Source: Macrostomum lignano
Taxonomy: Eukaryota
Reading direction: 5' to 3'
Length of the DNA stretch: 64,000 nucleotides
NCBI GenBank assembly: GCA_002269645.1
Contig: NIVC01003439.1
Coordinates: 1 to 64,000, forward strand
How positions within the stretch are numbered: the first letter of the stretch is position 1; each line of letters starts with the position of its first letter. Under the pieces are notes generated by a model that did no database searches, was not told the origin of the DNA, and saw only the letters and a list, made by a program, of their open reading frames with translations. Shown here in pieces: positions 1,880 to 61,171 of this stretch. The translations under genes and the position numbers were made by a program.

Positions 1880-4616
1880 TCATGGCATCCCAGAGGACAT
1901 TGAGGACGGGGTTCGGCCCGGAGCCCGAGGGGCTTCCGGCTCAATGTGGAAGCTGTGGAGCTTGGCTGCCCTCATCTTGAGCAGCCAAGCCACCCCCAGC
2001 TGCTTGACCCTGTCTGCGAGCATCGGCATACCTGCCAGCTTGTGCAGGTATTCAATGCTGATGTAGGATGGCACACCATAGCAGATACGGAGAGCCAGGT
2101 TTTGAATTTTCTGCAATTTGATTTGGTTAGTCGCACAGATTTGGCTCAGGATTGGCGCTCCGTAGGTGAGAGCGCTTTCTCCGTATGCCCTGTACAGCAT
2201 TCTGAGGGTGGTGCTACTCAGCTTAGTCATTTTTGCAATTCTGCACAGTGACATTACAATGGCTCTGCTGGTATCTGCCATGTTGTCCACATGTTTGTTC
2301 AGGCAGAGGCTCTGGTCAAGGAGGACACCCAGGAATTTCACCTCCTGACAGTACGGAACCTCAGTGTCCCCCAGATACAGTTTGGGTCGCAAGTCCATGC
2401 GCCTAGTGGGTTTGTAGTTGAAAGCGATTGCTTTGCTTTTACCGGCATTCAGTCTAATGCCTTGTTTACCGCACCAGTCAAAGACTCGTCTGAGGTAGCT
2501 TTGAAGGGATGTTCGGAGCCCCGCAAAGGTGTCTGCTGAGGCCCAGACGGCCATGTCGTCTGCGAATTGACTGCGTTTGACGCTTGAGATGGTGGGAGTC
2601 GGCATTGAGCTGACGAAGAGGAGGTACAGGAGAGGGCTCAGAATGCCTCCCTGAGGGACGCCAGCCTGGATGGTGTGGGGATCGCTTAGGGCCCCCTCGA
2701 TTCGAACCTGGATCTGTCTGTCTCGCAGGTAGTCAGACAGGATTCGCATGAGCATAGGTGGAAAACCATCGGTGAGCATGCTATGCCTGATCTTGTCGTG
2801 CCAGGTGGAGTCAAAAGCTGCCTCTGCATCCAGGAAGACTGCAGCGGACTTTTTAGCTTTGCACTTTGCTACCATGACATCTTGTGCCAGACGGCAGAGG
2901 TTGTCATACGTGGAGTGAATTTTGCGGTAGGCGCATTGGTCATCTCCTAGGGTCTTATTATCCTCAAGGTGCTTGGTGAGTCTTTTTGCTATAAGCTTCT
3001 CAAACACTTTGCCCAGACATGAGGTCAGGCTGATTGGTCTGTAGGAGTTGGGGTGTTCGGGCGGTTTGTCCGGCTTGGGGATCATTGTCACCACAGCTTT
3101 CTTCCAGGCGCTGGGGAAAATCCCTCGACCGTAGCAGGCGTTGAAGAGGTTAGTGAGTCTCGTGATTGCCACCCCCTCTAAGCCCAGCTTGAGGACGCAG
3201 TTGGGAATCTTGTCCAGCCCGGGTGCTCCATCAGGCCTGAGGTGCTCCAGTTCCCACACTGTGTCTGCCACAGAGAATGCAGCATCAAGTGGGTGGGTCT
3301 CGATGGGTTCGATTCCCTCAGGAACGGGGTAGAATGAGGTGAGCTGTGCCACATCGGCCACCTCACGTTTGAGCTGTTCGCATGTGGAAGGGACTGGGCG
3401 CATCTTTGAGTCCAGAGTCTCGGCTAGAAGGTTAGCCTTCTCCAGATCTGTGTGCGCAGTTGTTTGACCCAGGGTGAGGCTGGGGATGGAGGTTGGCTTA
3501 AATTTGCCCATCAGCTTTTTAGTGTCATGCCAGAAATTCTTCACTTTCTTGTTCTTGCTGTTTTCAACAATACTCTCACAGACTTTGGTGAGCTTTCCAT
3601 TCTGGAAGGAGTTAATTTCTCTCTTTATGCGATTTGCGAGCTGGTTTGCTTGGGTTTTGAAATTTTGATCCCGTGTGCTGAAGAAGAGGCGTCTGAGTCG
3701 TCTGCGCTCTTTGATCAGGTCGAGGATGTACTTGGGTAGGGCGTTTTTGGCACCACAGTCTGGTACTGTGGAGTCAATCACGGTGTGAATGGCCTTTGTG
3801 ATGTGATCCACTTCGGCATTGATTTGGTCAGCATTTGATAACTGAATATTCTGATCTGAGCTCAAAGCTTCACTGATTTTGAGTCTGAACTCGTCCCAGT
3901 TTGTTTTTGAGAAGTTTTTGGGTCTGGGGGACCAGCCCATTTCTTCGACTGAATATTGAGCGTGAGGATTATAGGTAAGTGGTCACTGCCCAGGTCAGGA
4001 CCCACCTCAAAGTCCTGCACAAATGGGAGAAAGTCCTCAGTGGCCAGGGCGAGGTCCAAGACATTCCTAGAAATCAGCCCGTTTTTGGTGGCCAGTCTGG
4101 TGAACTGACCGGCTTGATTGAGAATGGTGGGCGAGGTGGGGCCCTCAGACAGCCAGTCGTGCAGCTGGTAGCCAGCCATGTTGTTGCTGCTGTCACCCCG
4201 AGGAAGCGGTGTCTGGCATTGAGGTCACCCATGAGCACACTGCGCCTACGGGAGAGAAGATTTTTGAGTAGGTTCAGGTTCAGATGATACGGTGCTGGAG
4301 ACCTGTACACCAGAGCAAGATTGAAGTCAGGACCAGAGTTGTCAGACAGGCTCACGGTGCAAGAGATGGCTTCATGGTTGACATTGTCATACTGCAAGCG
4401 CACATTTGTGAGTTTGACGCGAGGAGAGTGGGCAAGGAGAAGCCCGCGTTTGACTTGCGGGGTATCATACCGAATGATGGAGTACCCGGGAATCTGGACA
4501 GTGTGACAACTTTTGAGAATAGTCTCAGAGAAGAGGGCAATGTCTAGCTCCTGACTGACGACCCACTGTGTCAGCTCTCTGATTTTCGGGTTGAATCCCC
4601 TGCAGTTTAAATGCAT
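1880..4616 (-). CDS. LINE ORF2: AP endonuclease plus reverse transcriptase, split over three frames (4616-~4200, ~4200-~3940, 3940-1880)
   Basis: APE motifs LKIMHLNCRG, LFSET, MGDLNARH, LDL, GSDHLPI. RT motifs YRPISLTSCLGKVFE, FLDAEAAFDS, GVPQGGILSPLLY, FADD, KFLGVLLD. Both frameshifts fall in short homopolymers. Confidence 0.92.
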
Positions 4617-4702
4617 AATCTTCAGGGCTGTGGTTTGATTGTTTGAGTCTACAGTTAACGCACTGAAGTTTCAATTCAAGTCTTGAGTTTAGCTGCCTGA
4701 GA

Positions 4703-7700
4703 CTAGGACTCAGTGGTCGCGCCGGCCATGCCCGGCACTTCCTGGAGTGCAGCCCGCACAATGTCCTCAACCATTTTACTGGTTGATTCCACAGTGAGGA
4801 CCTCCCCAGGCGGTCGGGACAGGGCCTGCACAACCACTTGAGTCAGAGAGCGGGTGATCAGGGGCAACAGCATGCTCACCACCGACATAAAGTCACTAAG
4901 CTGCAGCTGCACCGCCTGGCCGGCATCAGCTGACGGAGCAGTCGCATTGACATCAGACTCGGTCTCTGCCGCCGGAGCGCTCCTGGCATCATCGGTCACG
5001 ATGACAAGCGGCCGGATCGCGGCGGGTACCGGCACCGTGCGCCTGCCTCGGCGGATCAGCCAGCCGCTGTCGGAGTCGTCGTCGGCGGCGGCGTCGTCGG
5101 TCTCACTTGACACTGGGGCAGCAGCGGCCGCAGCTTCCGCAGCTCGCGCCGCGGCTTTGGCCTCAGCAGCCGCTCTGGTCGCCTTGTCGTGCTCCGCCTT
5201 GGCGACGGTGCAGGCTCGACTGGTGGTTCGGTGCGAGCCGCCGCAGTTGGCGCAGACCGCTGGGCCCTCGTGCTGGCACTCCTTCCAGGAATGCTGGCCG
5301 CCGCAAATCCGGCAGCGCTGCTGCCCCCGACACTGAGCAGCGCGGTGGCCGAACTCCTGGCAGCGCTGGCATTGCAGAGCGCGGACCGGCTCGTCTGTGC
5401 GGCTGTCCTCGCAGTTGAACTTCAAGAAGTCGGTGCAGATGCCATCGCGGAGGCACTTCTCGTAGGTCATCGCCGACTTTGTGAAGATGCGCACGAACTG
5501 GGTTGCCTTTCCAGTCGCTCTGGCTCGGATTCTGTGGACGCTGACAATGTCCAGCTTGAGCGTGCCGCGCAACAGGGTCGCGAAGTCAGCCTCCGAGAAT
5601 GCGAGGGGCACCTCAGTAGCGACGAAGGTGCGTACCGGCTGCTGCTGCACTCTGTCGGGCCCTGTTCTGTTGTCCAGCGGTCGGGCTCGGGCTGGACGGC
5701 GCTTTACGGGATGCTCGAGCAGCTTCTCCTCGCGCAGCGCGCCGCCCAGGAAGACGTTGTAGTCCCGCTCCGACGCTGGGAACACGAGATAGGCCGGCTG
5801 ATTCGCCATCGGCGCAGTGTTGACGGCTCTAGCTTCGCCGGCAAAGTTGGTCTGCAGCCAGGCAACGAACTGCATCAGCTTGTTGGCCGCGTCCCGGTGC
5901 ACCTCAAAAACGATCGGCGGGATGGCAGCCTGGGGCCTTCTGGGCGGCGCAGGGCGCGCCGCAACCTGCGCGTAGGGCCGCGCTGCCGCAGCCGCCTGCG
6001 CGCTTGTCGCCGAAGCCGCCGCCGCACCGGCCGGCCATGAAGCCGCCGAAGCCGCCGCCGCACCGGACGCCGCGCCGCGACCTCCTCGCCTGCCTCGCTG
6101 GTGGCCGCCACGGCCGCGCCGACCCCGATCGCTTTCGCGGTCTCGCGTCGCCGTCGCCTGCCGCTCCTGGGGCCTGTCGTCGCCCCGGCCGCCCTGGTCG
6201 TCGTCGTGGCCGCCTTGGTCGTCGTCCCGACCGCCTTGGTCGTCGCCGAATGGGCCGCCGTTGAGCGGCTGGCTGTAGGTCGGATCATCCGGCAGAGCTC
6301 GCTTGCGCCGCAGCTCCGGCTTGGTGACACGGAATGTTAGCGAGATGCGGACGCCATTCTGAGAGTGGGCGGCGGGCACCTGGTGCTGCAGGCGTTTCTG
6401 GCAGTTTCCTGCCATCAGAATCAGCGAGCCTGGCAGCGTTGGAAAGCGGTGCGTCACGTTGCCGTCCCGACGGCGCAGCATGAACAGCCGCTCAGCGCCG
6501 AAGGACACGGTCGCGATCGTCGGCCTGTCGCCGAGCTCATCCTCATCGTCCGAGTGCCAGGGAATCCGGTCTCCCGGCTCGGTGTAGAAGTTCACCAACA
6601 CGGAGTTGAACTTCGGGACATCGAACTGGGTATCATGGTAAATGAAGTCACGAATGTCTTCAATTACCTGATGCCAGTTTAGATTTTCCTTCAGCTCAAC
6701 CCCGCTGTAGGTGTACGACGGGCCGATCCAGTAGACGCGGCGCTGCTCACTCGGACGATGCTGAAAGGCTTGAGGCAGCAGGTCGGTGATCAGACGCTCG
6801 TAGACTTGGTCCGCGACCTCGCTCAGGAACTTGGGCGCATAGATGATGGTGCTGTCGCTAGCGTAGATCGTCTGCTGACAGTCAGTCAAGTCAGGCTCAT
6901 CAGGGAAGATGATTTGACTGATGTCAGCGTCCAGTTGCTCGGCAGGGGGCTTTGGCAGCGTCGAGGCCTGGTCTGCAGCCGATTGCTGGCGCTCCTCAGA
7001 CGTCGGCGCTGCCGCTGCCGCACTGAGCTCGCTGGACTCGGCAGTTGGTGGCTCGGTGGTTGCTGCGGCCTCGTTGGATGGCAGGGCGCTTGTCTGGCCT
7101 GGCTCGTCGCAGTCGAGAGACATGCGCTGCTCTGCCTCTGCGCCTGCAGCCTCCGGCAGCTGCTCATTCTCTCGCAGGATCTCCTCTGCGTTGCGCAAGA
7201 GCTCGCCGGCCGGTGGGCTGATCGAGTGGCGGCCTTCCAGACTGCGTCGAGCTCGCATCAGGCCTGCTGGCGGCGGGCTCGCAGTCGATGGCTCAGCTGT
7301 CGGCGTCAGTCCAAGAAGCTGGCGACCGTAGGCTTCGTTCGGACGATACCGGTGCTCAAGAGTAGGGATTCCAATCCCGGGATCCCGGGATCCCGGGATC
7401 CCGGGATTGGGGCCAAAAATCCGGGATTTGAATCCCGGGATTTTTTTGGGAATCGAATCCCGGGATTTTTAATCCCGGGATTGCAAAAGACCGGGATCGG
7501 GATCCCGGGATTTCAAGGCCTTAATCCCGGGATTGGTCCGGGATTAGAACGACCTTTCAATGCCTAAATTAGATAATTTAAAGTCTAAACGTTTATTTGA
7601 ATAATAAAACATTTATTTGTTTTTGCTGTTTCTCAATGAAACGTTAAACATTTGCAAAGCTCCTGTCCTAATTGAGCTAAAAATTGTTAATGTGAACTGT

Positions 7701-20504: not shown

Positions 20505-20827
20505 CACAATTCACAGTGCTATTTAGAGTCTCAGGGACTGATTCACAATTCAAGTGCTATTTAGAGTTGAAGTGACTGATTCACAATTCACAGTGCTATT
20601 TAGAGTTGAAGTGACTGATTCACAATTCACAGTGCTATTTAGAGTTGAAGTGACTGATTCACAATTCACAGTGCTATTTAGAGTTGAAGTGACTGATTCA
20701 CAATTCACAGTGCTATTTAGAGTTGAAGTGACTGATTCACAATTCACAGTGCTATTTAGAGTCTCAGGGACTGATTCACAATTCACAGTGCTATTTAGAG
20801 TCTCAGAGACTGATTCACAATTCACAG
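20505..20827. repeat. 39-bp minisatellite, left part (TTCACAGTGCTATTTAGAGTTGAAGTGACTGATTCACAA)
   Basis: The same array resumes at 29331 after the LTR element. Confidence 0.95.
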
Positions 20828-21663
20828 TGTCATGAATGTGTTATGACAATGTGCTCTTTGCTTAGTTGCTGCACCGGGCCAGTGGGCCGTCCTCTCCCCC
20901 TCCCCCCTCCTTAGATATTTTCTGACTCACTCACCTGCACTTCTGCGCGTGCGTACCCCTCCCCTCCCTGCCTAGACCTTTTCTGTTGAGTCAACCCCCC
21001 ATGCTCTGCGTGCGACCCCCCCCCCCTGTGCGACCCCGCCCCATTATTTTGTTAGCTTTGCTGCCCCGCCCCTGTTTGTGATTGGCTGCCAGTCCCAGTC
21101 TGCCGTGCTGCGCCCCGGCGATTGGCTGGTACAGCTCATGCGTTGCCTTGGCTGATGTCTAAGCCCCCTTTTCTGCCTTTATCCCGCGCCCTCGACCCCC
21201 AGTTTGCTGCCTATTTATTCGGCCCCCTTGAGACCCCATTCTCGTCGTCTTCGTGGCTCCTCGGCGATTGTGCCAGCGTTGGTTGCTGAATTGCTATTCC
21301 TCGCAGAATTGCTAGACAAATATATAAGTAAAGAATATCGAGATCACCACTGCTCTGACGGCGCTGTTTCTTGTACGACTGAAATCGCGGCTGGTAAGCC
21401 TTCCAATTTGTACGTCATTTGGGTCTGCATCTGTACTAGGCACCTTAGAGGGATTAAGTGCGTCGTACGCCGGTCCCACCCCAAGCAGCTCTGCGTCGTA
21501 CGCGAGTCTGTAGGCTGTCGTGCGTCGTACGCTCGAGCAGCCTAGTCCCGACGGACACCGCGTCGTACGCGTGTCAGTGGAGGACCGCAGCCAGGGTCAG
21601 TACACGAACCCGGGTCTGGGAAAGGGGCACGAAAGGACCGAGCCCTTGAGCCCCATCATCACA
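20828..21663 (+). repeat. 5' LTR
   Basis: TGTCATGAAT...CATCATCACA; TATATAA at 21321; candidate splice donor CTG|GTAAGC at 21393/21394. Confidence 0.96.
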
Positions 21664-21666
21664 AAT

Positions 21667-21684
21667 TGGCATCCTTGGTGGGAC
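21667..21684 (+). promoter_or_regulatory. Putative primer-binding site (TGGCATCCTTGGTGGGAC); cognate tRNA not identified
   Basis: Starts with TGG 3 nt after the 5' LTR. Confidence 0.6.
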
Positions 21685-21771: not shown

Positions 21772-22851
21772 ATGGATGCTGGAGGTGCTGCTGGAGGTGC
21801 TGCTGGAGGTGCGGCTGGAGGTGCGGCTGGAGGTGCGGCTGGAGGTGCGGCTGGAGGTGCTGCTGGAGGTGCTGCTGGAGCCTTTGGTGTTAATGATCTG
21901 GTCGCCGCCTTGACTGCCCAGATTCAGCAGAACATGCAGCAAGCGGGTGCCTTCAGGATTCAGAGGCCGGTGAAGTATGCTCCAGGAATGAATTTCGTGA
22001 AGTGGTTGAGGCTCTTCGTAGCTTATTGCGATGCCATGCAGATTCCGATGCAGAATCGGCGCGCTCAGTTGCTCAGCAATCTAGACTTCAGCACATTCCA
22101 AGTTGTCGACAACATGAACCTTGATGACGACCTGCAGTTCGAAGAATTTACCCAGGCCTTGAGGGATAGGTTCACTATGCACCGTACCGTCGTCGACTAC
22201 CGCACAGAACTGAGCAATAGAGAGCAGAGCGAGAAGGAGTCGGTAGAAGATTTCTCTGAAGCTGTGATTGAGTTGGTCGCAAACGCCTTTCCTGATGCGC
22301 CTGCCGATGTGCGCGATGATCTTGCGAAAGAGCGATTTATGCGAGGCGTCCGTGCGGGGGTGGCTGTGCGGGAGCGATTGTACATGAGCCAGCCGGAGAC
22401 CTTAGCAGACGCGATGCGTCTAGTGCATCAGCTGGAAGCGGCGGTTAGGGCAAGTCACGGTCCACCAGGTCAGGGATCAAAAAGAGCTACCGTCTGTGCT
22501 GTCACAGCTGAGACTAGAAATGAGGCTTCCGAAAGCAGTGAGGTCGAGATGCTTCGAATACAGCTTGCGGCCATGGAGATGCGAATGAAAGAGATGGAGG
22601 AGCGGAGGTCTGGAGAAGCGGAAGAGCCGACCCCGGCGAGTCGGAAGGCTGTGCAGTGTTTTTCGTGTCGAGAGTGGGGCCATATCTCATCAAAGTGTCC
22701 CAAGAAAACCAGCCAGACAAGTGGAAACGGGAAATCGCCAGTACGATGTCACAAGTGCAACGGTGAAGGCCACCTATCCTTCAAGTGTCCGAAGTCGGGA
22801 AACGGGCCGAGGGGACCGACCGGGGAGAGTCGGGACCCTGCCAGGAAGTGA
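21772..22851 (+). CDS. gag: Gag (359 aa) with N-terminal (GGAA)n repeat and two CCHC knuckles
   Basis: CFSCREWGHISSKC and CHKCNGEGHLSFKC; retrotransposon capsid-like core (WLRLFVAYC...LxQxEKESVEDF). Confidence 0.93.
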   Translation: MDAGGAAGGAAGGAAGGAAGGAAGGAAGGAAGGAAGAFGVNDLVAALTAQIQQNMQQAGAFRIQRPVKYAPGMNFVKWLRLFVAYCDAMQIPMQNRRAQLLSNLDFSTFQVVDNMNLDDDLQFEEFTQALRDRFTMHRTVVDYRTELSNREQSEKESVEDFSEAVIELVANAFPDAPADVRDDLAKERFMRGVRAGVAVRERLYMSQPETLADAMRLVHQLEAAVRASHGPPGQGSKRATVCAVTAETRNEASESSEVEMLRIQLAAMEMRMKEMEERRSGEAEEPTPASRKAVQCFSCREWGHISSKCPKKTSQTSGNGKSPVRCHKCNGEGHLSFKCPKSGNGPRGPTGESRDPARK

Positions 22852-25800
22852 AGTCTCCCAGGGGCGAGGAACCGGTGTTGCTCACTAACTCTGTAAATAA
22901 ATCCAAGTGCGTCTCTGGTGATGGGAATTCAAAGAGCAACCTGGTTCATGAGGCGTGTTCGTCGGTATCAACGGAGCCTCTGACAGTTTTTATTTCCGGT
23001 GCGGTTTCCGGCAAGCCAGTGGCTCTGCTGTTAGACAGTGGTGCGAGTGTGTCCGTGCTGAGCTGTGATGTTTTCCTGAGGCTGCCGCAAGAGGTGAGGG
23101 AGAGACTGACTGCAATGGACGGTTCCCTTTCAACGGCCAATGGAGGTGCGATGAGGATGAGAGGCTGCATTGTGCTGGACGTGGAGATTGGCGGCGAGCG
23201 GTGGTCAGCGAATTTCTTCGTAGTGGACGGATTACGTTATGATGTCATTCTCGGGTCCGAATTTTTCAAACAGCATCGTTGCGTCATCAACTATTCAGAG
23301 TTTGTCTTTCGAGTGGGCGATGTTAGAGTTCCGATACGGCAGAAAGGCGAGCTGCCCGTGGTGTGTCGAATCAAAGCCGAGACAACGGTATTTCTGGAAC
23401 CGGCGCAAGAAGTGGTCATGCCAGCCAGGGTAGAGAAAAAGGGCGCAAGAAACTGCGGATCGGTCGGCATAACGGAAGAAAAGCCGGTGAAGGCCGCTGA
23501 GAAGGATTTGGCGCTGGCTCGAGCTCTGGTAGCGCCCGGCGTGGATGGACGGCTGCCGATGAGATTGCTGAATACGTCCAGTTGTAGGAAGAGGGTCAAG
23601 AAAGGAGAGACGATTGGCTGGTTTATTCCTTTGGAACCGAACGGAGGTATCAACGTGGTGCGCTTGGACGACGACGTAGAGGCCAAGAATGAAGCGGAGG
23701 CATGGGACCCGATCGAAGAATTCCGCGAGTGGGGTTCATGTGGCCTGTCGGAGGAGGAGGAAGCCGACTTCAGGGAGCTGATTTCCCAACATCGGGCTGT
23801 CTTTGCTAAGGACTCCAAGGATCTCGGCTGTACGACGGTGATGAAGCACGAGATCGACACTGGAGATGCCAGGCCTGTGAAAGAAGCGGCGAGGCGGATT
23901 CCCCTGTACCTGCGGCAGGAAGTGGACAAGGAGTTGGATGACTTGCTGGAAGCTGGGAGAATCAGCGAGGTCCAGTCCCCATGGTGCTCTCCAGTGGTGT
24001 GCGTGAAAAAGAAGGACGGTTCACTGAGGTTCTGTTGTGACTACCGGAAACTGAATGAAGTGACCAAGAAGGATGCAGTGCCGTTGCCCAGGACAGATGA
24101 CCTGTTGGAGAGCCTAGGCGGTGCCAAGATTTTTTCGACCATGGACATGCAGTCGGGATACTGGCAGATGGCGGTGGAACCCAGCGACAGACTGAAGACG
24201 GCCTTTGGCGTTTCACACCGGGTACAGCAGTACGCCTGGAACGTTATGCCATTTGGATTGACAAATGCACCGGCTTCATTCAGCCGGCTAATGAATGTGG
24301 TGTTGGGGAAGTTGTGCTGGAAGACGTGTTTGGTGTATCTGGACGACCTGCTAGTGTGGTCACGAACGGTGGAAGAGCACCTGGAACGGTTGCAAACGGT
24401 TTTTCGACGGTTGCGAGCAGCGAACATCAAACTGAAGCCGAAGAAGTGCGCATTCCTGCTGAAGTCAGTGACCTTCCTGGGACACGTAGTGTCAGCTGAT
24501 GGGATCGCCACGAGTCCAGAAAAGATTGCCGAAATTCGTGACTGGCCAACTCCGAAGAATGTGAAGGAAGTAAGGTCATTCCTGGGACTGTGCGGGTATT
24601 ACCGGCAATTCATCGCAGATTTTTCCCGCATTGCTGAGCCGATGCTGCGACGGACCCGACATGATTGCCCGTGGAGCTGGGATGAGGAGTGTCAAGCCGC
24701 ATTCGAGGCCCTGAAGGAAAGGTTGCAGGGATCTGAGGTCATGGCGTTTCCAAACTTTGCGGAGGACGCTGGAGAATTCGTTTTAGACACAGACGGTAGC
24801 ACAAAAGAAGGAATTGGCGCTGTGCTTTCGCAGGTGCAGAAAGATGGGAGTGAGAAGGTAATAGCTTACGGAAGCAGGACGTTGTCGCGAGAAGAACGGA
24901 ATTACTGCACGACACGAGTCGAGTTGCTGGCCGTGGTGTTTTTCGTACAGAAGTTTCGTTATTACCTGATGGGGCGAGAGTTTCTAGTGCGCACCGATCA
25001 CAGCAGCTTGAAGTGGCTGCATTCGCTGCGGGACGTAGAAGGACAACTGGCCAGATGGCTGGAACTCTTGGCTCCGTACAGGTATCGCATCGAACATCGT
25101 CCGGGAGTGAAACATCAACACGCGGACGCTCTCTCCAGGAAGCCACGTCGGCGCCATCAAGGAAGCGAGAGTTGTCCTGGATGTGCACAAGAGCAGATCG
25201 GCGTGAACGCGTTGGGATTGCAGAAGTGGACCTCGGAGGAGATCAGAGAGAGCCAGAAGATCGACAGCGACATTCGTCAGGCGATGGAGCTGCTGGCTCA
25301 CGGCGACGGAGAGATAACCGAAGAGCATTTGCGGCGCATATCACCGACGGCAAGGAGGATTGTCGAAAGACGTCGTGACCTTGAGGTGTCGGACAGTGAG
25401 GTGTTGCTGTGTCATACGGCCAGTAGACGTCAGCCGCAAGTGGTGTTGCCACGGAATATGCTGAGAGCGGTGCTGGAAGAAGCTCATGGTGGACGGAGTG
25501 GAGGGCACGTTGGGATTTTCAAGACCAAGGAGAAGGTGCGGCAATCGTTTTGGAGGCCGGGACTTGGCCGCGAGGTCGAAGAGCACGTAAAAGCCTGTTT
25601 GGACTGCACCAAGGCCAAAGCTGGCAAGAAACCAATTGCACCGATGGAGCCGATTCCGAGTTCAAGCCCATTCGATATCGTGATGACGGACGTCATCGGG
25701 CCGCTGCCACGGAGCAAGAAAGGAAACTTCTACATCCTCACGGTGCAAGATGCGTTCTCAAAGTGGCCTGACGCTTATGCCATCCGGAACCAGAAGGCGG

Positions 25801-26994
25801 CAACGATCGCAAGGGTGCTATTCGAACGCTGGATTGCAAATCACGGGTGCCCCCGGGTACTTCACTCAGACCAAGGAAGGAACTTTGAGTCGGGGATCAT
25901 CAGGAAGCTGTGCGAGCTGTTGGGTGTGAAGAAGACCAGGACGAGCGCCTACCACCCGAGTGGCAACGGACAGGTGGAACGATTTAATGGGTTCCTGAAG
26001 AACAGTTTGCGCTCGTATCTGGTACAGAAGGGTCAGAACGCCTGGGAGGAGTACCTGCCAAGTGCATTGATGGCTTATCGATCGACGGTCCAGGCGTCCA
26101 CCGGTTACACGCCCTACTACATGCTGCATGGTCAGGAGATGCCACTGGGATTCGAACCAGAGGACCTTAGGCGAAAGACGGACAGCTGTCCCTTGTTTGT
26201 GCAAGAGATCAAGCAGAACCTGCTTCATGCCCATGAACGCATTCGAGAAGGACGCGAGACGGTTCAGCGACGGCAGAAAATGAATTACGATCGGAAGGTG
26301 AAGGGCAAAGCGATTCAGAAGGGCGACTCTGTCTTGCTTGTACTATCCGTGCTTGGAGATGGGAGAGAAAAGCAAGTTTCATATCAACTGGCGCGGCCCA
26401 GTGAAGGTCCTGGAGAAGCTGTCAGATGCGTTGTACCGAGTGCAGGATCCGACACAGCCGCAGAAGACCAAGGTGGTGCACTTCAACAATCTCCGGCCGG
26501 TTCAGGGCCAGACGGAGGCGGCAGACGATCAAGAGACAGGAGAGGAAATTGGGAGGGCCAGTTCGGGAAAAACCAGGCCGCGACGTGGTAATTCCGCTGC
26601 TGGACGAAGCCGAAGGCAGAGAGTGCAACGGGGCGAGACCCAGAGGTGGACCGCAGCGCGAGGGCCGCAGGACCAGGAATCCGAGCAGGAAGATGAAGAG
26701 TTTGAAGATCTTCAGCTGCGGTTTCAAGATCCAAGAGATCACGCTCCACCGGACACCCGAAATCTGGCCGAAGACTGTGAGCCCGGACCTGAGCGTCGAG
26801 AAGCAGACGATGACGAAGAAGAGCACGACGATGAGGCGCGGTACGACGAGGAGCAGGACGAAGAGGATGAGGCAGAGCCGAACGACGCCAACGTACCCGA
26901 GCAGGAAGTGAGGACGGCACAGGAGGAAGCAGGGCGACCAAGACGTCTGCGGCGACCGCCAGATCGGTTTGGGGTCCCGGTGTACCACTACTGA
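22785..26994 (+). CDS. pol: Pol: protease, RT, RNase H, integrase; one frameshift near 26338 separates the integrase C-terminal tail (26338-26994)
   Basis: LLDSGAS, YLDD, RNase H DTDGS, HHCC zinc finger, D-D-E core (HSDQGRNFES, NGQVERFN), tail WRGPVKV...RPRRLRRPPDRFG. No chromodomain fused to the integrase. Confidence 0.95.
22797..22839 (+). promoter_or_regulatory. -1 programmed ribosomal frameshift signal (gag-pol)
   Basis: G GGA AAC heptamer in the gag frame (22797-22803), 6-nt spacer, then hairpin AGGG-GA-CCGAC-loop-GTCGG-GA-CCCT. Pol lies in the -1 frame. Confidence 0.75.
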
Positions 26995-27093
26995 AGAAGG
27001 GTCCGGTGTACGGCGCTTGGATAGCCAAGGGGGAAGGGAGGTACATGTCGTGCGTGTCTCATTGCTCATCGGAGTTAGGCCGGACTGTTACAG

Positions 27094-28080
27094 ATGGCGG
27101 ACCTCTACGAGTGTCTTGGAGTGCAGCTGTGGGCGTCTGCGGCACAGATTCGGAAAGCGTTCTACGGTCGAGCACGCGAACTGCACCCTGACAAGAGCGC
27201 AACAGAGGAGACGCGGAAGAGATTCCAGGAGTGCGAAGAGGCGTACCGAATACTGTCGTGTCCGTTCCTTAGAAAGCTGTACGATATCTTTGGAAATGCT
27301 GTTCGTGACCGGGATGAAATGCTTCGGCTCGCAGAAGGGATGTTAGAGGATGAAGACATGCCCGACGATCTCCGAGAAGAGATAGAAAGACTACAAGAGA
27401 GCGACCGATTAGCTGAGGAGGCGTACGAGAGAGAACAGGCGAGGAGGGATGAGGAGCACGTCAAGATGGAGGCAAGTGAGGAGGCCTCAGACGATGAGCA
27501 GGACGAAGAGATGAACGAGGCGAGTGAGACACTGCCGGAGGAGTACGAGGTCGAGAAGGTCTTAGGAGTACGAGTCACGGAGCGAGGAGCGGAGTATCTG
27601 CTGCAGTGGGCCGGTGTAGAGGAGCTTGAGACGTCATGGGAAGCGGAGGAAGATTGTGCCGGATGTAGAAACCTGATTGAAGAATACCTGCAGAGAGCGT
27701 ACCGGCTTCAGACCAGACCGTGCCGACCAGTGACCGTCGCGGAACTGGAGAACGTAGGACCCAGTCGGAAGAAACTGCACCAGGCAATGCGAAAGGGCGA
27801 CCCGTGGGGCATCTTTGAGGTGCTGCTAGCCCTGAAGGGGAAGTGCGCCACTGCCTCGGTGGATTTCAAGGAATTCGGTCCGGAGTTGATGCTGCAGATC
27901 CTGGGCTACTTGGAGCGAGACGGTCGCAAGTATCCGGGGCACGGAGTTCGTCGGTGGAGTCGCCAAGCGTGTCAAGCTGTCTACATGTCGGTGATGGTGG
28001 TGTTCCCGCTGTTTGACCTGCGACGCCAGGGTTTGGTCCTGGGTGCCCTCCGTAGGCTGTGGGATTCGTGCTCTGACTGA
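27094..28080 (+). CDS. ORF3 (328 aa): DnaJ/Hsp40 J-domain, acidic coiled linker, HP1-like chromodomain, unassigned C-terminal helical domain
   Basis: J-domain DLYECLGV...IRKAFYGRARELHPDK...FQECEEAYRILS...RKLYD (27100-27294; HPD 27184-27192). Chromodomain EEYEVEKVLGVR...EYLLQWAG...TSWEAEEDCAGCRNLIEEY (27538-27696). Uninterrupted ORF upstream of the PPT. Confidence 0.92.
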   Translation: MADLYECLGVQLWASAAQIRKAFYGRARELHPDKSATEETRKRFQECEEAYRILSCPFLRKLYDIFGNAVRDRDEMLRLAEGMLEDEDMPDDLREEIERLQESDRLAEEAYEREQARRDEEHVKMEASEEASDDEQDEEMNEASETLPEEYEVEKVLGVRVTERGAEYLLQWAGVEELETSWEAEEDCAGCRNLIEEYLQRAYRLQTRPCRPVTVAELENVGPSRKKLHQAMRKGDPWGIFEVLLALKGKCATASVDFKEFGPELMLQILGYLERDGRKYPGHGVRRWSRQACQAVYMSVMVVFPLFDLRRQGLVLGALRRLWDSCSD

Positions 28081-28484
28081 GGCTATGTCTTCCTAGGGAC
28101 TTTGGGGCTAGGGACTTTGCAGTGCAGACCCAGGGACAGCGGAGCGGAGGTGGACCGGCCTTAACGGGTGCTGACGGAGCGACACGGCTGTGCAGCAACC
28201 GCAGGACTCGACGACCAGCGCAGAGCGACCAGAGCAACCGGCGACAGTAGCGACAGGGAGACGAGGCACCAGAGCGACGGCCGTACTCGGCGGGATGCAG
28301 GGAAGCAGTGCTAGTATTACTTGTGAGGGTAAATGTTTGACGGTTTCATTTTTTTGTTTTTTGTTCGAACTAGTTGCCATGCGAGTCCAAAATATTTTTC
28401 AAATGCGGTTTGTTCCTCTGTTCAATTTTTTTGTTATAGTAGCATCATTTCAATATTCGACTTTTCGAACTCGAACTTTTGTCT

Positions 28485-28496
28485 AGGGGGAGGGAG
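28485..28496 (+). promoter_or_regulatory. Polypurine tract
   Basis: AGGGGGAGGGAG directly before the 3' LTR. Confidence 0.9.
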
Positions 28497-29330
28497 TGTC
28501 ATGAATGTGTTATGACAATGTGCTCTTTGCTTAGTTGCTGCACCGGGCCAGTGGGCCGTCCTCTCCCCCTCCCCCCTCCTTAGATATTTTCTGACTCACT
28601 CACCTGCACTTCTGCGCGTGCGTACCCCTCCCCTCCCTGCCTAGACCTTTTCTGTTGAGTCAACCCCCCATGCTCTGCGTGCGACCCCCCCCCTGTGCGA
28701 CCCCGCCCCATTATTTTGTTAGCTTTGCTGCCCCGCCCCTGTTTGTGATTGGCTGCCAGTCCCAGTCTGCCGTGCTGCGCCCCGGCGATTGGCTGGTACA
28801 GCTCATGCGTTGCCTTGGCTGATGTCTAAGCCCCCTTTTCTGCCTTTATCCCGCGCCCTCGACCCCCAGTTTGCTGCCTATTTATTCGGCCCCCTTGAGA
28901 CCCCATTCTCGTCGTCTTCGTGGCTCCTCGGCGATTGTGCCAGCGTTGGTTGCTGAATTGCTATTCCTCGCAGAATTGCTAGACAAATATATAAGTAAAG
29001 AATATCGAGATCACCACTGCTCTGACGGCGCTGTTTCTTGTACGACTGAAATCGCGGCTGGTAAGCCTTCCAATTTGTACGTCATTTGGGTCTGCATCTG
29101 TACTAGGCACCTTAGAGGGATTAAGTGCGTCGTACGCCGGTCCCACCCCAAGCAGCTCTGCGTCGTACGCGAGTCTGTAGGCTGTCGTGCGTCGTACGCT
29201 CGAGCAGCCTAGTCCCGACGGACACCGCGTCGTACGCGTGTCAGTGGAGGACCGCAGCCAGGGTCAGTACACGAACCCGGGTCTGGGAAAGGGGCACGAA
29301 AGGACCGAGCCCTTGAGCCCCATCATCACA
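28497..29330 (+). repeat. 3' LTR
   Basis: By eye it matches the 5' LTR except for a C-run (11 vs 9 C). Confidence 0.96.
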
Positions 29331-30245
29331 ACAGTGCTATTTAGAGTTGAAGTGACTGATTCACAATTCACAGTGCTATTTAGAGTTGAAGTGACTGATT
29401 CACAATTCACAGTGCTATTTAGAGTTGAAGTGACTGATTCACAATTCACAGTGCTATTTAGAGTTGAAGTGACTGATTCACAATTCACAGTGCTATTTAG
29501 AGTTGAAGGGACTGATTCACAATTCACAGTGCTATTTAGAGTCTCAGTGACTGATTCACAATTCACAGTGCTATTTAGAGTCTCAGTGACTGATTCACAA
29601 TTCACAGTGCTATTTAGAGTCTCAGGGACTGATTCACAGTTCACAGTGCTATTTAGAGTTGAAGTGACTGATTCACAATTCACAGTGCTATTTAGAGTTG
29701 AAGTGACTGATTCACAATTCACAGTGCTATTTAGAGTTGAAGTGACTGATTCACAATTCACAGGGCTATTTAGAGTTGAAGTGACTCATTCACAATTCAC
29801 AGTGCTATTTAGAGTTGAAGTGACTCATTCACAATTCACAGTGCTATTTAGAGTCTCAAAGACTGATTCACAATTCACAGTGCTATTTAGAGTCTCAGAG
29901 ACTGATTCACAATTCACAGTGCTATTTAGAGTCTCAGAGACTGATTCACAATTCACAGTGCTATTTAGAGTTGAAGTGACTGATTCACAATTCACAGTGC
30001 TATTTAGAGTTGAAGTGACTGATTCACAATTCACAGGGCTATTTAGAGTTGAAGTGACTGATTCACAATTCACAGTGCTATTTAGAGTCGCAGGGACTGA
30101 TTCACAATTCACAGTGCTATTTAGAGTTGAAGTGACTCATTCACAATTCACAGTGCTATTTAGAGTCTCAGGGACTGATTCACAATTCACAGTGCTATTT
30201 AGAGTCTCAGTGACTGATTCACAATTCACAGTGCTATTTAGAGTC
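29331..30245. repeat. 39-bp minisatellite, right part
   Basis: Continuation of the 20505-20827 array. Confidence 0.95.
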
Positions 30246-60436: not shown

Positions 60437-61171
60437 TCACTTAGCAGCGCTGGTGCTCTCCCGCATAGAGTGGGAGCGGGACCGCTTCCTCTCCGCCTTG
60501 CGCTCCCTGGCCTCCTTGGCTCGCTGGCCAATCAGCTTGGCGTACTCGGCCGCCTCTTCGCGTTTCTTTGTGGCGCGCCGGCGCTTCAGTGCCACGCGAT
60601 GGCGCTTGCGCTGCAGCACAATTGGCGTCACCAGGCGCTGGATCTTCGGCGCCTTGGTGCGCTCCGGCTTGCCCTCCTTGGTCTTCTTCTTCTGCCGGAT
60701 CACGTACGCCCTGACGTCGTCTTTCTTAGTCAGCTGGAACATCCGCCGGATGTTGGAGGCCCGCTTCGGGCCCAGACGGCGCGGCACGGTGGTGTCAGTG
60801 AGGCCGGGGATCTCGCCGGGGCCTTTGTGCACGATCACCAGGCTGAGCACGGACAGGTTCGAGTCCACGATGCAGCCGCGCACAGACTTGCGCTTCCGTT
60901 CGCCTGTCCGGCGCGGCTTGTAGCAGGAGTGTCCGGCGGACAGCAGCAGGCGGACGCGGCCATTGGTGAGCACGCCCTGCTTCATGGGGAAGCCCTGCTT
61001 GTCGTTGCCGCCGCTGATACGGACAACGTAGCCCTTCCACTCCTCGCCAAGGCTGTCGGCTGGCACCTCGGCCGACATGCGCTTCTCAAAGAATGGCGTC
61101 AGCTTCTTGATGTCGTCAACTTCGAAGCATTTCTGCGACCCGGCGGTCGGGAAACTGACGTTGATCTTCAT
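60437..61171 (-). CDS. RPS6: 40S ribosomal protein S6 (eS6), intronless CDS, 244 aa
   Basis: [14 protein letters not shown]...[25 protein letters not shown]...[12 protein letters not shown]...[14 protein letters not shown]...[10 protein letters not shown]; Ser-rich C-terminus. Confidence 0.98.

Follow-up and report, generated by a model that had tools for sequence, protein, structure and literature searches.

An LTR retrotransposon with an additional gene

The window analyzed here, a 64,000-nucleotide stretch of a Macrostomum lignano contig (NIVC01003439.1, assembly GCA_002269645.1), harbors a complete Ty3/gypsy LTR retrotransposon with TG...CA LTR ends, a target duplication, and primer-binding-site-like and polypurine tract (PPT) sequences (Table 1). 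The genes are arranged in the order gag, pol (PR-RT-RH-IN) and a third open reading frame, ORF3, followed by the PPT and the 3′ LTR. No mismatch and only two indel bases separate the two LTRs; the lack of mismatches indicates a very recent insertion. The initial annotation described ORF3 as an intact frame within the LTRs, between pol and the PPT, and both its coordinates and the absence of stop codons were upheld. It also assigned ORF3 to the “env slot”, and that position stands, but ORF3 is not env-like: no env family matched, and the best 19-residue hydropathy of 1.35 leaves ORF3 without the membrane-spanning stretch of errantiviral or other env proteins.

The pol gene of the window copy shifts frame near position 26,340, where all 25 other loci of its family (family A) that span the site align with at least one gap. 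Chromoviruses carry a chromodomain at the integrase C-terminus. In agreement with the earlier annotation of the integrase, Pfam detected no chromodomain in either pol or the tail of the integrase, be it in family A or in the related families B to E described below, which sets these elements apart from chromoviruses. The second PPT-like tract just behind pol is possibly a relic of ORF3 capture or a second plus-strand primer. Most family A copies also contain ~146 extra bases at window positions 28352-28364, which are missing from the window copy and a few others.

Table 1. Features of the ORF3-bearing element in the window, and TatD-like ORF3 loci of related families.
Feature	Coordinates	Strand	Basis
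Target-site duplication, 4 bp	left 20824..20827; right 29331-29334	+	flanks of element
5′ LTR, 836 bp, TG...CA	20828..21663	+	LTR comparison
Splice-donor-like site in LTR	21393..21399	+	sequence and one contig of run X13
Primer-binding-site-like stretch, begins TGG	21667..21684	+	sequence pattern
gag, 359 aa, two zinc knuckles	21772..22851	+	open reading frame and Pfam
pol (protease, reverse transcriptase, RNase H, integrase)	22767..26994	+	open frame 22767-26591, rest in frame 26359-26994
Integrase C-terminal domain	within frame 26359-26994	+	second pol frame of window copy
Second PPT-like purine tract just 3′ of pol	27027..27041	+	between pol and ORF3
Splice-acceptor-like site ending AG directly before ORF3 ATG	27085..27093	+	sequence; 6 of 9 families alike
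ORF3, 328 aa, intronless, no stops	27094..28080	+	open reading frame, Pfam
J-domain, residues 3-64; HPD codons 27184-27192	27100..27285	+	Pfam DnaJ
Acidic linker, 18 of 43 residues D/E, psi-K-x-E site	27409..27537	+	composition and motif pattern
HP1/Swi6-type chromodomain, residues 151-201	27544..27696	+	Pfam and solved relatives
C-terminal helical domain (CTD), five helices, basic loop	27718..28077	+	model; no Pfam or fold match
Polypurine tract	28485..28496	+	directly before 3′ LTR
3′ LTR, 834 bp	28497..29330	+	LTR comparison
39-bp satellite array holding the insertion	29331..30244; other part 20505-20827	.	tandem-repeat detection
TatD-like ORF3 loci, families F and G	L048:1735-3258; L043:1913-2200; L050:1443-1841		

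Domain organization of ORF3

The domain assignments made at first sight were borne out by profile searches. Pfam DnaJ matches the N-terminus with an E-value of 4.6e-16, above the curated cut-off, with the HPD motif at residues 31-33. The modeled J-domain overlays solved J-domains with ~1-2 Å rmsd over ~66 residues, and the HPD lies between helices II and III of a J-domain fold, as in class C type J-domain proteins. Pfam Chromo matches behind the acidic linker (E 1.4e-12, likewise above the curated cut-off), and the nearest solved relatives of this region are Swi6, CBX5 and CBX1 (E 1.6e-10 to 1.5e-9). HP1 chromodomains form an aromatic cage of three residues. Two of these are kept in ORF3 (Y151 and W172), as had been annotated, and the third is V175, for which reason methyl-lysine affinity of the family A chromodomain may be weak. 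In an AlphaFold model of the full protein, confidence is good for the J-domain and the CTD but not over the stretch of residues 129-221. The chromodomain falls within this stretch and was present in only two of the six rows of the input alignment. The chromodomain assignment therefore stands on the sequence profiles.

The C-terminal sequence, previously described as helical and without an assigned family, is modeled with confidence (pLDDT 86); it forms five helices and has a basic loop. No Pfam family matched the C-terminal 126 residues at E-values up to 1, i.e., there is no chromoshadow domain, in line with the all-helical model. No fold relative rose above background in the PDB (two methods) or in BFVD, and Foldseek returned none at E 0.001; the best structural match (Z 7.7, rmsd 2.5, 80 aligned residues) lies in a range where helical bundles give background. 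The CTD is thus a well-predicted and, by these searches, new protein domain. NCBI and UniRef hold a protein that differs from ORF3 at a single residue, annotated as a hypothetical or J-domain protein of M. lignano.

Copies of family A and selection on ORF3

The genome contains at least 137 ORF3 matches, counted from 122 scored candidates of 247; this and the following copy counts are lower bounds. Family A ORF3 occurs on at least 27 contigs and is full-length and stop-free on 17 of the 27, and in each of the 29 family A loci examined, the sequence around ORF3 or to either side of it is that of the element. There is redundancy in the assembly, as 23 family A loci with a readable LTR end correspond to 19 distinct flanks. 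In some copies ORF3 is lost or broken. The frame is nevertheless under purifying selection. Across the 28 loci other than the window copy, broken ones included, synonymous variants number 30, and those that change an amino acid or introduce a stop number 28 (pN/pS 0.29, p 4e-6); pN/pS falls to 0.105 for variants found in at least three loci. The integrase core gives 0.25 and 0.18, respectively (25 loci), so that selection on ORF3 is about as strong as on integrase. The HPD and cage codons carry no amino-acid change in the 28 loci. Decay in most copies or a dN/dS near 1, as expected of a one-off capture, is thus not what the copies reveal. The close matches to the chromodomain found in this genome, 31 in number, all fall within ORF3 of family A and its relative A2, in agreement with the claim that the fusion is no ordinary host gene.

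Chimeras of these two families were also observed. Three loci (L030, L035 and L047) join A-type gag-pol to an A2 integrase tail, an A2 ORF3 start and an A-type ORF3 end, and a contig of run X5 has the same A2-to-A junction near position 27913.

A clade of ORF3-bearing families

Weaker matches of the family A search led to families B to E, then to A2, B2, C2, D2 and F, and finally to G; for B2, D2 and one C2 locus, the ORF3 region alone was examined. In total, a J-domain joined to a CTD occurs in at least 11 families or subfamilies of this genome (A, A2, B, B2, C, C2, D, D2, E, F and G), 10 of which keep the HPD. In families B, C, D and E, an intronless ORF3 follows gypsy pol directly. It has a J-domain with HPD, an acidic linker and a related CTD, and Pfam found no chromodomain in it. 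Uninterrupted full-length matches number at least 20 for B, 15 for C, 3 for D and 2 for E. When A rows are left out of the profile, the family A CTD still matches it at E 6e-17. The fusion of J-domain and chromodomain is therefore element-borne, as originally proposed, but the chromodomain is not its conserved core: only A and A2 have one, and the core consists of J-domain and CTD. Judged from these sequences, there is a broader J-protein platform, within which the fusion to a chromodomain forms a single branch. All three cage positions are aromatic in the A2 chromodomain.

Between families, dN/dS ranges from 0.10 to 0.30 and covers J-domain, CTD and chromodomain: 0.25 for D-D1 and F-F, 0.20-0.22 for D-D2, 0.10 and 0.21 for B-B2, 0.20 and 0.16 for C-C2, and 0.30 for the A-A2 chromodomain. 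In reading these values, note that dS exceeds 1 in the deeper pairs and that two comparisons of the A and A2 N-termini had reached saturation.

A CTD profile search of 1.84 billion representative proteins returned 10 matches. They include two M. lignano gene models that join element pieces, two unrelated repeat proteins, and protein P0002, which is 76% identical to family A and has a chromodomain with Leu as third cage residue. Five further proteins from Logan/JGI are ~40-50% identical to B or D; three are full-length with DnaJ, two are partial, and none of the five has a Chromo match. Since the profile recovered P0002 and these five proteins, the ORF3 family extends beyond this genome. No host gene with a CTD was found among the 1.84 billion representatives.

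A word-index search with the single ORF3 protein gave two matches and its profile counterpart 603, with a chromodomain in 2 of the 120 listed; longer proteins gave none in this search, which is weak evidence. In contig scans for relatives in their DNA context, protein P0127 gave none in metagenomes and viral contigs yielded none either, and the 80 metagenome loci obtained with the profile are plain J-domains, none with CTD or pol. A “decayed chromodomain” considered for protein P0126 was unsupported by Pfam and BLASTP.

These data bear on the idea that ORF3 was taken from the host and is merely carried along as a neutral passenger gene. Its J-domain and chromodomain are host-type domains and some copies have lost or broken the frame, as a passenger might, but low dN/dS throughout contradicts neutrality, the protein database yielded no host gene with the CTD, and the ORF3 start codon is preceded by a conserved splice acceptor (see below). 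We regard this explanation as extremely improbable: ORF3 is element-borne and maintained by purifying selection.

A separate J-domain frame was encountered at L044:3-1172 (minus strand; G000:C575). This multi-copy open frame of up to 1449 aa comprises a J-domain and a cysteine-rich stretch, has further copies on C3488 (twice), C1744 and C1901, and resembles ORF3 in the J-domain alone. A pol-ORF3 fusion was ruled out for it, as there is no match to the CTD; the frame could belong to another mobile element carrying a J-protein.

Expression signals

In A, A2, B, B2, D and D2, the ORF3 start codon is immediately preceded by an AG dinucleotide, which in E lies one base earlier. In C and G, a YAG is found 16 and 7 bases before the ATG, respectively. 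The AG directly before the ATG across families points to an ORF3 message that is spliced or trans-spliced; trans-splicing is reported as common in M. lignano (PMC5730564). The donor-like site in the LTR is a candidate partner. One contig of run X13 departs from the element exactly after position 21393, where it is joined to unrelated sequence, and this site may be the donor for the ORF3 message. The same contig suggests that family A LTRs start chimeric host transcripts. Contigs of four runs from four studies, guessed to be RNA, represent the element in each of its 30 bins and continue through the ORF3 acceptor without a break. A joint between LTR donor and ORF3 acceptor was not found in these contigs, but contigs drop rare forms, so splicing remains compatible with this result.

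Variable modules

In most chromodomain-free families, the linker changes fast except for a retained motif of hydrophobic followed by acidic residues, similar to a phospho-SIM. A strict SIM-like pattern occurs in 3 of 16 linkers against 0.6 expected (P = 0.02), and a relaxed one in 10 of 16 against 1.1 expected, a comparison whose P overstates the case because the pattern was written after inspection and the rows are related. Eight equally acidic integrase tails, used as control, had none. In a complex prediction of host SUMO with a family B linker peptide, the score was 0.48 as compared to 0.39 for the control, which we count neither for nor against an interaction. The linkers of family A and P0002 lack the SIM-like motif, and both carry a psi-K-x-E site that is SUMO-acceptor-like. 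A third module occurs in families F and G, where ORF3 ends in a TatD-like tail (Pfam E 1.4e-4 to 0.02, below the cut-off). All five weak PDB matches of this tail are TatD-family proteins, and one metal-binding His position holds Arg, so that the tail probably lacks a metal-binding His.

In several families, the SIM-like motif also fits an Atg8-binding pattern. This would suit a cytoplasmic protein that draws Hsp70 onto the Hsc70-Hsp90-Hop loading machinery and in this way sabotages piRNA biogenesis, and Drosophila Hsp70 has been described to displace piRNA-biogenesis chaperones and thereby activate transposons (10.1101/423210). The chromodomain and the basic loop would point, however, to the nucleus, and neither GAAnnTTC nor TTCnnGAA was found by pattern search of the family A LTR, unlike the canonical heat-shock elements described for heat-induced LTR families of M. 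lignano (PMC12801592). We consider such sabotage decidedly unlikely.

Families without HPD or without ORF3

From 132 integrase matches, we examined 11 without an ORF3 match in their vicinity. Of these, two belong to family G, three to a family H that has no ORF3, and two to distant elements without ORF3; of the remainder, two are interrupted before the ORF3 slot, by what we judged by eye to be non-LTR element sequence, and two retain only ORF3 remnants. The family G ORF3, read at 2 loci of ~15 integrase matches with near-identical scores, is open over 508 aa and consists of a decayed J-domain without HPD, a CTD and the TatD-like tail, with the SIM-like motif lost. The integrase tree places family H next to G as its sister (93/92) and groups it with G and F (100/97). 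Loss of ORF3 in H is the simplest reading of this tree, which is unrooted and does not resolve at its deep branches. Because H lacks ORF3, the gene is not needed for replication; with one sister family devoid of ORF3 and the other of the HPD, ORF3 is accessory. Integrase and ORF3 trees agree in joining F with G, but the deeper branches of both do not resolve, and we therefore claim no order of module gains. Taken together, ORF3 is an accessory, selected and modular J-protein of one gypsy clade.

Reverse transcriptases and capsids depend on chaperones. ORF3 could thus be a private co-chaperone that brings Hsp70 to Gag, reverse transcriptase or integrase and helps particles to assemble or uncoat or the integration complex to come apart, with the modules serving localization only. 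J-domain and CTD are indeed the oldest shared part, and ORF3 travels with pol, as the joint placement of F and G on both trees illustrates. This role is harder to reconcile with family H, which does without ORF3, with family G, which does without HPD, and with two unrelated chromatin-type modules in the linkers of different families; the cotravel argument does not reach into the poorly resolved deeper branches. We rate it as fairly unlikely. That G keeps an ORF3 without HPD could alternatively mean that ORF3 dampens its own element, as a SILENZIO-like repressor or a decoy for HP1 or SUMO, and limits copy-number damage or superinfection. J-proteins joined to methyl readers can silence in the Arabidopsis case described in PMC8616336. 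Against such dampening, which seems to us unlikely, 10 of 11 families retain the HPD, and the three largest ORF3 families are both recent and rich in copies, with at least 17, 20 and 15 full-length matches free of interruption.

In family H, the ORF3 slot contains a 207-codon open frame without initial ATG (L055:1522-2145), also open in L057, with no Pfam match. A distant gypsy element (L058:21-2888) has an integrase frame with a ~590-residue low-complexity tail that includes a SIM-like motif, VIDLT.

Integration sites

The window copy sits in a 39-bp satellite, and the chromodomain might, as the initial annotation had suggested, steer integration into heterochromatin or satellites, which would be chromovirus-like but in trans. 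We compared tandem repeats at insertion sites of family A with those of chromodomain-free family C. The family A set comprises 30 insertions: 18 distinct 3′ flanks, the window excluded, and 12 distinct 5′ flanks, the latter remaining from 20 after dropping 4 that repeat counted insertions, 1 inside an LTR and 3 duplicates. For family C, 20 flanks yielded 18 distinct ones. Tandem repeats adjoin 8 of the 30 A insertions and 4 of the 18 C insertions (Fisher p = 1), and neither rate clearly exceeds the 15% of the M. lignano genome reported as simple and tandem repeats (PMC5730564; p 0.07 for A and 0.28 for C). The test is small and detects tandem repeats only, not H3K9me domains. Given that A shows no satellite bias relative to chromodomain-free C, these data argue against integration targeting, and we find it very improbable as the function of ORF3.

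A model for ORF3 function

An anti-silencing reading rests on two distinct modules that point at one pathway, the chromodomain as a reader of the H3K9me type and the SIM-like motif: piRNA-guided transcriptional silencing in Drosophila is reported to need SUMO and SetDB1-deposited H3K9me3 (10.1101/533091). We propose, at odds just short of even (roughly 45%) and from sequence features, that ORF3 may be an Hsp70-recruiting counter-silencing adaptor with swappable targeting modules. It would be translated from a spliced RNA in which the LTR donor or a spliced leader is joined to the AG before the ATG, and would act in the nucleus. There, the variable module would dock ORF3 on silenced chromatin, the chromodomain via methylated H3K9 and the SIM-like motif via SUMO-modified silencing factors, with the CTD possibly supplying specificity for DNA, RNA or a host protein. 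The J-domain would then trigger Hsp70, such that the silencing complex is remodeled or released and the element stays transcribed. The incomplete cage in family A, the HPD-less family G, SILENZIO-type pairs that repress, and the contigs of the four runs, none of which links the LTR donor to the ORF3 acceptor, all count against this model.

Relation to known systems

Family A shares with chromoviruses that a gypsy element encodes a chromodomain. Unlike in chromoviruses, this domain lies in a separate ORF behind a J-domain, is confined to 2 of 11 families, and came with no tandem-repeat targeting that we could see. T antigens of polyomaviruses have an N-terminal J-domain with HPD and an acidic, motif-bearing linker, and direct Hsp70 at a nuclear host complex. 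ORF3 has the same start, a J-domain with HPD followed by an acidic linker with motifs, but it belongs to a retroelement, no LxCxE was seen in its linker, there is no helicase, and homology was compared in the J-domain alone. By analogy, ORF3 might be a T-antigen-like counter-defence protein, a J platform that aims Hsp70 at the heterochromatin machinery and whose modules are switched in an arms race, which we hold to be possible though short of probable. Were it so, ORF3 would represent a retrotransposon-encoded anti-silencing adaptor in an animal. VANC of Arabidopsis VANDAL DNA transposons is a transposon anti-silencing factor. It differs in element class and domains from ORF3, yet both are element-encoded accessory proteins, with a role in countering host silencing that in the case of ORF3 is a proposal. 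We know of few transposon-encoded silencing suppressors, and of none from animal LTR elements that uses Hsp70.

The host pairs described in two Arabidopsis reports also unite a reader of a repressive mark, a J-protein and Hsp70 at transposon chromatin: MBD5/6-SILENZIO-HSP70, which represses (PMC8616336), and SUVH1/3-DNAJ1/2, which activates (PMC11694752). As presented there, these are separate, host-encoded polypeptides that read DNA methylation, whereas ORF3 is one parasite-encoded chain. Extra ORFs are known from other LTR elements. Bdelloid Ty3/gypsy ORF3s are reported to encode a DEDDy exonuclease or a GDSL esterase (PMC5408684), and plant Retand elements to carry extra ORFs (PMC11963269). 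These, too, are host-type sense ORFs between pol and the 3′ LTR that are kept by the element, but the cargo described here is a J-domain co-chaperone with a clade-specific CTD and swappable modules. We found no description of a J-domain ORF in an LTR element in the literature searched, to which subscription journals, bioRxiv supplements, Repbase and GyDB did not belong; the main text of a 2025 study of M. lignano LTR elements (PMC12801592) does not contain the terms DnaJ, J domain, Hsp40, chromo or ORF3. The element itself is of a familiar type; as an accessory gene, ORF3 is new in kind and apparently undescribed.

The clade constitutes a natural series in which a scaffold of J-domain and CTD comes with a chromodomain, a SIM-like motif or a TatD-like tail, without HPD, or in which ORF3 is missing altogether. 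As transgenesis and LTR reporter assays are described for M. lignano (PMC5730564, PMC12801592), these tools make heterochromatin dismantling by animal retrotransposons directly testable. A small module of reader and J-domain could also serve as a tool that directs Hsp70 to chromatin.

Other features of the window

On the minus strand at 1880-7258, the window contains a non-LTR retrotransposon whose 851-aa ORF1 has an AlkB-type 2OG-Fe(II) oxygenase domain (Pfam E 2.1e-21) and a zinc knuckle and is followed by endonuclease and reverse transcriptase frames; a second, partial copy of the start of this ORF1 lies at 336-955. An intact, intronless ribosomal protein S6 frame of 244 aa (60437-61171, minus strand; Pfam E 4.7e-52), either a gene or a retrocopy, adjoins a 37-bp satellite array.
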